58,102 bases of DNA from Candidatus Heimdallarchaeota archaeon (GTDB lineage: Archaea; Asgardarchaeota; Heimdallarchaeia; Heimdallarchaeales; Heimdallarchaeaceae). Shown here piece by piece: positions 18,236-56,886 of the stretch (its first letter is position 1; every line of letters starts with the position of its first letter). The stretch is from contig JAAFKI010000092.1 in assembly GCA_021399345.1 (NCBI GenBank), positions 1 to 58,102 on the forward strand, given 5' to 3'. The position numbers and the translations under genes are program-made. The notes below the pieces were generated by a model. That model was not told the origin of the DNA, ran no database searches, and saw nothing but the letters and a program-made list of their open reading frames with translations.

Positions 18236-20008
18236 ATGAAAAAGAAAAAAAAGAAACTATCTATTAGCTTAAGTGTTCTCATTATTGGTTTTTTAATAAG
18301 CACTTCTTCGCTAAATGTTCTTAGCACAAAAGCTCTACTAGAGGAAAAACAAAATCAATACAAAATGAATTCCTTTGATGGAATTACTTGGAAATGGAAT
18401 ATAACTGAGGTGGTTTCCACCGAAAGTATAGCAGATTCTCACATTCCTTCTCTTGCATTAGATTCTGCAAGCAACTTGCATATAGTGTGGTGTGATGTAA
18501 CTAACTATGCTGGGAGTGGAACAGATATAGATATTTTCTATAAGCGATGTGATGCATCTACCGCCTTATGGACAACAACAGAGGTCGTTTCTACAGAGAG
18601 TACCGCTGATTCTTGGAACCCCTCTCTTGCGGTGGATTTTGCAGGTAATCTTCATGTAGCTTGGTATGATTATACTGATTATGCTGGGAGTGGAACAGAT
18701 ATAGATATTTTCTACAAATGCTGGAACGCTTCTTCCTCCTCGTGGACAACAACAAAAGTTGTCTCCACCGAAAGTACAGGTGTTTCTTACGCTCCTTCTC
18801 TTGCTGTAGACAATTTAGGGGATGTTCACATATCGTGGCATGATACTACTGATTATACTGGAGCTGGAACGGATGCAGATATTTTCTACAAGCTTTGGGA
18901 CGCTTCTATTTCCAATTGGACCATTACAGAAGTCATTTCCACAGAAAGTACAGGCAAATCTTACCACCCTTCTCTTGCTGCAGACAATATAGGGAATGTG
19001 CACATAACATGGAATGATCAAACTAATTATGCTGGTGCTGGAACAGATTGGGATATTTTTTACAAACATTGGAACGCTTCTACATCATTATGGACCACGA
19101 CAGAGGTTGTTTCAACTGAAAGTACAGATCTGTCTGATTTTCCTTCTCTTGCTGTAGACAATTTAGGGAATACGCATATAGCGTGGAGTGATGAAACTAA
19201 TTATGCTAGCAGTGGTATATATCCTGATATTTTCTACAAACGCTGGGACGCTTCTAACTCTTCATGGACCATTACAGAAGTCATTTCCACAGAAAGAACT
19301 GGAGCGAACAAATCTTACACCCCTTCTCTTGCATTAGATTCTGCAAGCAATGTGCATATAGTGTGGCGCGATGACACTAATTATGCTGGCTGTGGACCAT
19401 ATTGGGATATTTTCTACAAACGATGGGACGCTTCTTCCTCCTCATGGACCATTACAGAAGTCGTTTCCACAGAAAGTACAATTGATTCTTATAATCCTTC
19501 TCTTGCTGTAGATTCTGCTGATAATTTACATATAGCTTGGTATGATCATACTAATTATGCTGGATCAGGATCTGATTGGGATATTTTCTATAAACTTTTC
19601 GCAGGTCCTTCTGTTGCTCCTGCCACTGCTCCTAAATTAGCCTTCATTGTCCCTAATCCAACTGAACTCAATACGATTTATCTCGATTGGAATAATATAC
19701 TAAGAGCAACGACTTACTCTGTTTATCGTTCCACTTCTTGCATCTGTTCTGTGGAAGGATTCAGTCCCATTATCACTGTTTCCTCCAGTGAATATATGGA
19801 TACTGTCCCTTCTGAAGGACTCTACTTCTATGTTGTTGTTGCTGAAAACTTTGCTGGGAACAGCTCTCCCTCTAATTGTCAATATGTCTACTTTGAACCA
19901 TTAGCTCTAACTCCAACTGAAGAAACAAGTATAGGAATTAAGGTAATAGGAATAATGATAGTTTTCGGATTTGTTTCTCTAATCTTTAAGAAAAAGAAAA
20001 TAATTTGA
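18236..20008 (+). CDS. Secreted 7-repeat (likely beta-propeller) protein with FN3-like domain and C-terminal TM anchor
   Basis: Signal peptide, 7 x ~58-aa repeats, LDW..Y.VYRS..Y.D..G.YFYVVVAEN FN3 pattern, hydrophobic tail plus KKKK. Confidence 0.85.
   Translation: MKKKKKKLSISLSVLIIGFLISTSSLNVLSTKALLEEKQNQYKMNSFDGITWKWNITEVVSTESIADSHIPSLALDSASNLHIVWCDVTNYAGSGTDIDIFYKRCDASTALWTTTEVVSTESTADSWNPSLAVDFAGNLHVAWYDYTDYAGSGTDIDIFYKCWNASSSSWTTTKVVSTESTGVSYAPSLAVDNLGDVHISWHDTTDYTGAGTDADIFYKLWDASISNWTITEVISTESTGKSYHPSLAADNIGNVHITWNDQTNYAGAGTDWDIFYKHWNASTSLWTTTEVVSTESTDLSDFPSLAVDNLGNTHIAWSDETNYASSGIYPDIFYKRWDASNSSWTITEVISTERTGANKSYTPSLALDSASNVHIVWRDDTNYAGCGPYWDIFYKRWDASSSSWTITEVVSTESTIDSYNPSLAVDSADNLHIAWYDHTNYAGSGSDWDIFYKLFAGPSVAPATAPKLAFIVPNPTELNTIYLDWNNILRATTYSVYRSTSCICSVEGFSPIITVSSSEYMDTVPSEGLYFYVVVAENFAGNSSPSNCQYVYFEPLALTPTEETSIGIKVIGIMIVFGFVSLIFKKKKII
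18395..19594 (+). repeat. Intragenic tandem repeat, 7 units of ~174 bp
   Basis: Unit consensus WTxTEVVSTESxxxSxxPSLAxDxxxNxHIxWxDxTNYAGxGxDxDIFYKxWxAS; unit 6 has a 2-aa insertion. Confidence 0.95.
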
Positions 20009-54714: not shown

Positions 54715-54977
54715 GAACTAATACTATCATACTCTCATATTAATATTGTCTTTTTAGAAAAGAAATAAATTAAATATTTTTTGAGAATATACTTATTAAC
54801 ACAAAAGAAGAGGATTCATAATGAATGAAATGGATAATTCTGATAAAGAAATTGTTTCAGGTAAGAAGGGGATTCTATCTTTACCAGGTTTTCCTATTGT
54901 TATAGGGTGTATTGGTAAAAATCCTATAACTATAGCTGCAATTAGTATGGTTTCATTTGATAATCCTCCTTTAATTA

Positions 54978-56408
54978 TGAACTAGATTTGTCATGTAGTC
55001 ATATTAAATTGACAGTTAATCACATTGAAAGACAGGAAGGAGGAGAATATTACGGGGGCTTTTATAGGGAATTATAGGAGAAAAAGTGATGACAAAAGTA
55101 CTGAGAGTAGAATGTATAGAAGTAGACTATCATCAAGCTTTGAGCACGCTTTGTCATCAAGTGAAAAACCTCTATAATCAAGCGAATTATCTGGTAAAAC
55201 AATCCTTGAACAAAGAGAATAAGCTACTAGTCTATTATGACCTTAACTCTTTACTCAAAGATGAGGAATACTATAAAGTGCTTCCTGTACATACTGCACA
55301 ACATACTCTCAAACTCCTCTGTAGGAACTGGAAGGGGTATTTTCAAGCGAAGAAGGAGTGGGAGAAGTATCCTGAAAAGTTCTTCAACATACCCAGACCT
55401 CCGAAATATAAAGCTAGGGATGGGGAAATGGTGGCAATCTTCACCAACCAACAAGCTAAGATAAAGAATGGGTGGCTAGTTTTACCAAAAAAAGTGGGAT
55501 ATTATTACAAAACTCGACTGACAGCTCGAACGAAGCTTAAGGAAGTGAGAATTATTCCTAGAAGAGTAGGTTATACCCTCGAGTTAGTATATGAAAAAGT
55601 TCTTCCTAAGCTGAGAAAACGATTTATCAGAAAAGGAGCGATCGATTTAGGGGCCATCAACCTTGTGACCTTTGTGGATAACCTTGGGTCTCAACCAATT
55701 GTTATCAAGGATCACGGGAAAGGAATTAAAAGTATTATCCTTTATTATTTGAAATTCCAGACAAAATTACGAGAACAATATGTTCAGCAGCAGAAGAAAC
55801 AATTGAAACAGCAGAGGAAATTGATTTATGGACCTACTTATTATCATCTTCGAGATAAGTTTAGGAAGAAACTGAAAGATGCCATTCACAAATTAACGAG
55901 ATATCTAGTAAACTTGTGGATTGAACGCGATCTACATGAGGTGATCATCGGATATAACCCATTGTGGAAACAAGGAGTGCGTTTAAGAAAGAAAATCACC
56001 CAAATGTTTGTTGCCATCCCCTTCATGAAAATCATCAATCAACTACAGTACAAAGCTGCTGAGCATGGAATCCATGTTGATCTTATTCCTGAAGACTACA
56101 CATCCAAAAGCAGTTTCTTAGATAATGAGTTTCCACAAAAAAGAACTACTTATGCAGGTAGAAGAACCACTCGAGGATTGTTCAAATCTTCTCAAGGTCA
56201 TCTCATCAATGCTGATGTGAATGCTGCTTATAATATTTTAGTCAAAAGCGATCCGAAAGCACTTCCTAAACGCAGTGTGAACGGGGTAGGAGGATACGTG
56301 ATGTATCCACTTAGAGTTTGTGTTGACCCACAAGGAATGATACCCAAGTCCTCTACAAAAGATGTTCAACTATCTTGACTAATATGCCAAGATGACAAAA
56401 ACTCATCA
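54978..56408 (+). mobile_element. Non-autonomous TnpB-only insertion element with imperfect terminal inverted repeats
   Basis: Removing it restores TTA ATT ATG ATC GGA ATT; ATGA occurs at both junctions (54977-80, 56408-11), so the boundary can slide by up to 4 nt; 29-bp ends match 20/29 in inverted orientation. Confidence 0.88.
55086..56378 (+). CDS. tnpB: TnpB RNA-guided nuclease, rearranged-RuvC type
   Basis: KNLYNQANY, PRPPKYK, RuvC-I IDLG, RuvC-II position IIGYN, alternative E in PEDYTSK, RuvC-III NADVNAAYNI. Confidence 0.92.
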   Translation: MMTKVLRVECIEVDYHQALSTLCHQVKNLYNQANYLVKQSLNKENKLLVYYDLNSLLKDEEYYKVLPVHTAQHTLKLLCRNWKGYFQAKKEWEKYPEKFFNIPRPPKYKARDGEMVAIFTNQQAKIKNGWLVLPKKVGYYYKTRLTARTKLKEVRIIPRRVGYTLELVYEKVLPKLRKRFIRKGAIDLGAINLVTFVDNLGSQPIVIKDHGKGIKSIILYYLKFQTKLREQYVQQQKKQLKQQRKLIYGPTYYHLRDKFRKKLKDAIHKLTRYLVNLWIERDLHEVIIGYNPLWKQGVRLRKKITQMFVAIPFMKIINQLQYKAAEHGIHVDLIPEDYTSKSSFLDNEFPQKRTTYAGRRTTRGLFKSSQGHLINADVNAAYNILVKSDPKALPKRSVNGVGGYVMYPLRVCVDPQGMIPKSSTKDVQLS

Positions 56409-56431
56409 TGATCGGAATTGTTCCCAAAAGA
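56250..56431 (+). ncRNA. Predicted omega/reRNA overlapping the tnpB 3' end and right end, with guide from the flank
   Basis: Hairpins GCACT..AGTGT (56259-78) and GGATAC-GTGAT-GTATCC (56292-308) downstream of RuvC-III; position matches known TnpB RNAs; limits approximate. Confidence 0.45.
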
Positions 56432-56886
56432 AAGAAGTAAAGGATTATTCAATAGTATATCGGAAAAATTTCAGGTAGAGATGTTGAAGATAAATTTAAA
56501 GCAATAGGTCTTACACCTGTAAAAGCTTCAAAAATAAGTTCATATCTAATAAAAGAATGCCTTGTTAATCTAGAATGTAAGGTTGTTCATACTCTTGATT
56601 TAGGGGGGACGCATACGTGGTTTGTTGGTGAAGTAGTAGCTGCTCATTTAGCCAAAGATTATGATCGGTCTAAAGCATTCTTTTTCTGGCCTGGACAATT
56701 TAGATATGTTGGTGATGTAATCGAAACCTGAAAGGATCTTTTTGAGTCGTTCAATGTGTTCCATTACAGGTCGTGATTGTTCATCTAAAGTGGTTAAAAA
56801 GAAGGTTTATAAAGAAAAATTAGTATTGGCAAAACAATAAGATTAGTTTAAAAAAAAGCTAGTCTAAAAGATAAAGGAGAATTATT

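Follow-up and report, generated by a model that had tools for sequence, protein, structure and literature searches.

A 58,102-nt stretch of Heimdallarchaeaceae DNA (contig JAAFKI010000092.1; hereafter, the window) carries a 1.43-kb TnpB element that is real, well bounded, and recurrently inserted. We consider it probable that this is a non-autonomous, IS607-derived TnpB/omega-RNA element moved by a serine recombinase acting in trans, with crossover at an AT dinucleotide. A serine recombinase in trans was among the possibilities raised by an earlier sequence-only reading of the locus, and it stands as the best mechanism in light of AT-only sharing at the junctions, symmetric ends that co-vary, and IS607-linked TnpB ancestry.

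The element and its empty site

The element interrupts a flavin-reductase gene, to which it adds exactly 1,431 bp net. Its gene content is a single open reading frame (ORF), encoding a 430–amino acid TnpB, plus a guide RNA region; as had been noted from the sequence, there is no tnpA inside or beside it. The features of the locus, in window coordinates, are as follows.

54821 to 54976, + strand: 5′ part of the host flavin-reductase gene, near-identical to an intact 177–amino acid ortholog in L069 (Pfam Flavin_Reduct on the ortholog)
54975 to 54978, + strand: predicted TAM, TTAT (host TT plus the AT core), suggested by T counts in left flanks
54977 to 54978, no strand: left AT core copy, single copy in empty alleles
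54979 to 55006, + strand: left end, composed of an 8-nt variable spacer, motif repeats at 54987 to 54994 and 54995 to 55002, and then ATTA; no conserved hairpin
55086 to 56378, + strand: tnpB, 430 amino acids (NF040570, 136.5 bits; Pfam; residues read from the sequence)
56292 to 56308, + strand: predicted omega-RNA hairpin, with loop 56298 to 56302 pairing with the terminal pentamer 56405 to 56409 (pseudoknot)
56374 to 56391, + strand: right-end hairpin or inverted motif pair, present in the predicted lowest-energy structure of just about 36 of 92 right ends
56380 to 56407, − strand: right end, mirror image of the left, with inner motif 56392 to 56399 and 8-nt spacer 56400 to 56407
56408 to 56409, no strand: right AT core copy and last bases of the predicted RNA scaffold, placed by junction statistics and the flanks in run X3
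56410 to 56425, + strand: predicted guide (host sequence), from the layout of TnpB omega-RNAs; it matches the empty site just 3′ of TTAT, and its length is a guess
56410 to 56734, + strand: remaining 3′ portion of the flavin-reductase pseudogene, missing 19 bp and 35 bp relative to empty alleles

Empty alleles are seen in the genome of a relative, whose uninterrupted ortholog has one ATGA at the insertion site, and in contigs of four sequencing runs from three studies, which skip 1,431 bp at the site with 4 ambiguous letters. The AT core is single copy in both sources; in run X3, other flanks start after 56409. Excision had been predicted to restore the host codons. This holds locally, where the ortholog and the run contigs read PPLIM-IGIVP, but the gene would not be restored because the window allele is also short of 19 bp after 56430 and of 35 bp after 56453, both of which are present in all empty alleles. 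The 19-bp deletion begins about 21 nt from the TAM, near where TnpB would cut; the two losses could be a repair scar or ordinary decay. A resident IS607 element adjoins the same flavin-reductase gene in L069 (G001). Elsewhere in the window, positions 18394 to 19599 have many similar stretches in the rest of the genome (self-comparison depth of 22), probably a repeated protein domain.

The genome contains over 15 related copies, along with three that carry internal deletions. The family is large and tnpB-only, with relatives in 26 of the 31 genomes of the host family (Heimdallarchaeaceae) and up to about 30 TnpB matches per genome in Heimdall genomes. No copy seen carries a tnpA, in agreement with the proposal that the family is non-autonomous, and no autonomous copy was found among more than 150 loci drawn from the element's own genome, 17 right-end matches in relatives, genome, metagenome, and viral collections, and 60 further copies. 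The recombinase gene that had been anticipated in longer copies with the same ends was likewise absent from the loci examined. Miniature copies with both ends and the omega-RNA region occur at G000 C40:886-1270, C41:179273-179639, and C88:73833-74180. A second, apparently non-coding miniature family is present at G000 C3, C4, C5, C28, C132, C136, C161, C171, and C192; it seems to have AT junctions with the inner motif TTTTGTAC 8 nt inside, and several of its copies are cut by contig ends. No description of the TnpB family was found in the literature searched; its clade may be listed in the supplements of a 2023 TnpB survey.

AT is the only sequence shared by both junctions

Comparison of the left end (54978 to 55006) with the reverse complement of 56380 to 56408 reproduced the reported identity of 20 of 29 positions, and 17 of 20 over positions 10 to 29. 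These terminal inverted repeats are imperfect and bipartite, and the 20-nt end pair was also picked up as an inverted repeat (I2) of the window. By chance, matches of at least 17/20 arose twice in 6.5 million positions of the reversed genome, while an end matrix matched the genome 28 times and the reversed control 0 times. The GTCAT/GGCAT repeats spaced 8 bp apart at each end, as well as the predicted dyad of the joined ends, read as previously written.

To avoid circularity, the ends of about 90 copies were located by the inner 20-nt motif alone. AT lies exactly 8 nt outside this motif in 93 of 94 right ends and 7 to 9 nt outside it in 78 of 82 left ends; the copies have fixed ends with inverted motifs rather than differing endpoints. 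Beyond AT, 42 of 66 full copies share no junction base, 7 share one, and 9 share two, and in none of the 66 is a base shared to the left of AT. Therefore, ATGA is not a duplication, and AT is the shared unit. The ATGA that had been described as common to both junctions is so in the window copy, where the extra GA is a property of this copy's target, but family-wide only AT is common; the expectation of a non-GG core was correct. The proposed TCATGA center, in turn, is not a conserved unit: left ends start with GA or AA, the left spacer is 7 to 9 nt, and TC is plausibly constrained by the omega-RNA. Overall, the first bases of the left end vary (GA, AA, GG), and the right end is more constant over its first eight bases.

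Left flanks read W-T-T, with T at −1 in 78 of 78 and at −2 in 68 of 78, while right flanks favor A at +2 (57 of 94; P = 2e-7) and also at +3 (P = 1.5e-4). All four half-sites, right flanks included, lean to AT-R-A-W, a pattern that a symmetric recombinase would be expected to produce. The flanks of target sites are similar to the first bases of the element. Independent insertions by different elements occurred at three host sites, and at two of these the elements lie in opposite orientations. The motifs at the left and right ends co-vary (16.1, compared with 15.6 ± 0.12 after shuffling within host and subfamily), with kinship between copies only partly controlled in this and the junction tests. 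In at least three lineages, the motifs at both ends shift together, and the closest relative of the window copy has a changed motif at both ends and a still similar right-end interior.

TnpB, its omega-RNA, and its ancestry

TnpB has a rearranged RuvC-II (D187, E336, and D377, with G289 at the canonical Glu position), which is a described TnpB variant (PMC10711439), and, as read from the sequence, no CxxC zinc finger. The RuvC triad and the omega-RNA predicted at the right end are features of an RNA-guided nuclease. An Rfam search gave no match, and a single-sequence AlphaFold model of TnpB (pLDDT of 33) was not used. The loop of a hairpin within the end of tnpB pairs with the terminal pentamer at 5 of 5 positions in 92 of 92 elements, and loop and element end change together in sister clades. 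By analogy with ISXfa1, in which the RNA scaffold has a pseudoknot and terminates in the core (PMC10711439), we interpret this pairing as an omega-RNA pseudoknot whose scaffold would end with the core. In view of this invariant pairing, the TC of TCATGA probably reflects an RNA constraint; on the left, GA or AA follows.

In a tree with weakly supported deep branches, the TnpB family nests among IS607-linked TnpBs. The nearest TnpBs with a partner adjoin a serine TnpA (L239, 46%; L266 to L282; an element of an H. pylori plasmid); identity is 36% to an H. pylori IS607 TnpB and 39 to 46% to other IS607-linked TnpBs. Loki-type IS607 copies whose serine tnpA is recognizable but mostly broken also show AT at each junction; the core is preceded by T on the left and by C in the right end, the left junctions being read by eye from ten or so copies. 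The AT core therefore has a serine-recombinase precedent in the same clade.

Related TnpBs of other Asgards (L163, L165, L167, L170, and L147, the last being the closest sister lineage) have inverted ends and 8-bp duplications that start with T, and this T completes the pseudoknot; the automatic inverted-repeat search is unreliable below about 19/24 matching bases. The 8-bp duplications of sister lineages imply that this TnpB clade switches end types and transposases. Two TnpBs of the clade (L175:4001-5626 and L174:4001-5539) have N-terminal extensions of 100 to 120 amino acids, with a faint MazE-like match in the former and, judged by eye, possibly a winged helix in the latter.

Proposed mechanism and candidate recombinases

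We propose that a serine recombinase encoded elsewhere would bind the repeated TTGTCA-type motifs at both ends and cut with a 2-bp stagger at AT. The element would be excised as a circle (right end–AT–left end), leaving a scarless empty site, and the AT of the circle would then be crossed with the AT of a target, preferably one of the approximate form WTT-AT-RAW. TnpB and the omega-RNA, with the scaffold extending to the right-hand AT and the guide starting at 56410, would cut empty sites preceded by TTAT and spare the element's own TCAT end; such homing would retain copies at TTAT sites. No right end–left end circle junction was present in the 31 genomes or in the run contigs, and contigs drop rare forms.

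Within this explanation, we lean toward a TnpA of IS607 type that has been lost, has escaped sampling, or is part of another element, and regard the host's chromosomal short serine recombinase as a substantial, if lesser, prospect. Cognate IS607-type tnpA was found in 0 of the 31 host-family genomes and in 26 other Asgard genomes, whereas genes for short chromosomal serine recombinases occur in 29 of the 31 versus 0 of 369 others. Two complete genomes contain several AT-core copies of a related TnpB lineage, 89 to 97% alike, plus an unrelated TnpB family whose ends follow the same design except for C instead of T at −1, so the base at −1 follows the nuclease. Neither genome has an IS607 TnpA, and the resolvase family is represented in them solely by two short chromosomal serine recombinases. 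These proteins of 243 to 249 amino acids, catalytic domain first, are proposed to be vertically inherited, and their best solved-structure match is the catalytic domain of ISC1926 TnpA. The chromosomal short serine recombinase is thus a candidate, unproven mobilizer. The broader idea that several Heimdallarchaeaceae TnpB elements of unrelated origin have lost their own transposases and are moved by this family-only chromosomal enzyme, a hijacked host recombinase, is possible but tentative.

Co-distribution of recombinase and elements in one clade counts as a single event. Conserved ACCTT/AAGGT palindromes lie directly upstream of both short serine recombinase genes (L001:1489-2220 and L002:1207-1956), at L001:1430-1490 and upstream of the ORF in L002; they are unlike the element ends and unchanged between genera while the end motifs change, a mismatch that counts against the host enzyme if the palindromes are the recombinase's binding sites. 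Its C-terminal region is likewise conserved while element end motifs vary, and an element whose ends are similar in part exists in one genome from outside the family; both points also speak against this candidate. Tyrosine recombinases occur in only 2 of 5 element-rich genomes.

The resident IS607 of the family (TnpA of 196 to 204 amino acids), mostly associated with a TnpB-like gene of 620 to 650 amino acids, is considered an unlikely mobilizer: it has other ends, scores below the end matrix, and is absent from both complete genomes. At L003 and at G000 C4, C88, C89, and C129, a different IS607 family with TnpB-like genes of 620 to 650 amino acids has no evident common core dinucleotide between its apparent ends.

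Alternative transposition routes

Junctions identical to those seen here would also be produced by a DDE enzyme acting in trans on the bipartite terminal inverted repeats (GA/AA...TC) with a 2-bp AT duplication, and this counts against the serine-recombinase explanation. Sister Asgard lineages of this TnpB do combine inverted ends with 8-bp duplications, and IS630/Tc1 enzymes duplicate TA. At the same time, the variable tips (GA, AA, GG) and the 7- to 9-nt left spacer are unlike the tips of DDE elements in general, and the target flanks resemble the element's first bases. IS6, IS630, and IS110 gave no match in five element-rich genomes and IS4-type enzymes none in G000 or G016, and the ends of the principal IS4-type family in the complete genomes are different; among these four DDE groups, no transposase with matching ends emerged. 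TnpB branches associated with DDE enzymes, and solo TnpBs whose ends match, have been described, and symmetric ends are typical of DDE-linked TnpBs (Altae-Tran et al. 2023, PMC10691335). We consider this route improbable.

The NCBIfam protein name is IS200/IS605-related, and an IS1341-type member of that group, moved by a Y1 (HUH) TnpA, would have TTAT as its left and TCAT as its right cleavage site. The tetranucleotides fit the general IS200/IS605 pattern, insertion 3′ of TTAT without duplication is formally compatible with IS1341, and a right-end hairpin is found in about 40% of copies. The same T/C pattern, however, occurs in serine-TnpA elements, and subterminal hairpins at both ends with guide tetranucleotides are not what we observe: left ends are no better folded than shuffled sequences, 7 of 69 contain the AAAA guide word that would be expected, and the ends are mirror images that co-vary. 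No Y1 match was found in any of 25 genus genomes (assemblies 72 to 92% complete) or in complete G005. Hence, the Y1 reading, which the first description of the locus had already disfavored, is largely refuted and very unlikely.

Equally doubtful is movement by an Asgard Cas1 homolog (aCas1) or another unrecognized integrase. TnpBs linked to aCas1 with a GTTCACTCA motif have been described in Asgards (PMC10691335), and one related lineage ends in CACTCAT. On the other hand, a Pfam model, which a divergent aCas1 could escape, gave no Cas1 match in G000, and Cas1 matches in the family are mostly CRISPR-associated, with none adjoining this TnpB family and none having these ends. Last, a DDE enzyme duplicating 4 bp, suggested earlier from the ATGA flanking the window copy, is refuted by the 42 of 66 full copies that share no base beyond AT and the lack of any shared base to its left, and is given practically no weight.

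Significance and comparison with known systems

The family is among the most abundant mobile elements of these Heimdall genomes, which are close relatives of eukaryotes, and its ends contradict its annotation as IS200/IS605. It offers a natural TnpB series with predictable TAMs (TTAT, ATAT, CAT), guide boundary, and empty sites, in which one TnpB clade has passed among end types (IS607, 8-bp duplication, and AT core), much as Fanzors did among transposons. The present analysis adds junction statistics free of circularity, a common half-site consensus, target sites used more than once and in either orientation, IS607 relatives that combine an AT core with a tnpA, and the observation that cognate tnpA and the host recombinase exclude each other in distribution. 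Should the host enzyme prove to be the mobilizer, this would be a new transposition route and would provide a function for a pair of Heimdall genes that is conserved but unexplained; should the mobilizer instead be an IS607 TnpA that was lost or not sampled, it would be a modest extension of IS607 to an AT core.

Integrative mobile elements exploiting Xer (IMEX) have no recombinase of their own and borrow the host enzyme, with tyrosine recombinases acting at one dif site. The likeness is one of concept only, a recombinase-less element borrowing a host enzyme: the present family uses many AT sites, and the candidate enzyme, a serine recombinase, is unproven in this role. The IS1341 group is similar in carrying tnpB only and in having TTAT upstream and TCAT at the right end, and differs from this family, which has no left hairpin or guide word, symmetric ends, and no Y1 found in the genus. 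Like DDE-associated TnpBs (PMC10691335), the element has tnpB between inverted ends and would be mobilized in trans; it differs in that no DDE partner was found, only 2 bp are common, and the tips vary. The sister Asgard lineages, with their 8-bp duplication, fit that class, and the present family does not obviously do so.

The closest resemblance is to IS607, IS1535, ISC1926 (PMC6188088), ISXfa1 (PMC10711439), and CboIStron (10.1101/2023.11.20.567912). As in these elements, the same 2-bp core is found in both ends and the target with no net duplication, short repeated motifs (here with a period of 8 bp) are inverted between the ends, and the TnpB is homologous, its descent from IS607-linked TnpBs depending on weakly supported deep branches. 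The predicted TAM and the right end differ at the base before the core, and a pseudoknot with the core ending the RNA scaffold is predicted here, too. In CboIStron, the TAM is TGGG and the end TCGG around a GG core (10.1101/2023.11.20.567912), the same T/C contrast before the core as in TTAT/TCAT. Differences are that the core is AT instead of GG, as in Loki-type IS607 elements, that tnpA (MerR-type helix-turn-helix plus serine recombinase) is missing from all copies seen, that the ends are nearly symmetric with an 8-bp period, unlike characterized IS607 ends, and that this end design is common to unrelated TnpB lineages in one host. Most likely, the element works like an IS607 element with an AT core, yet by gene content it is not an IS607 member.
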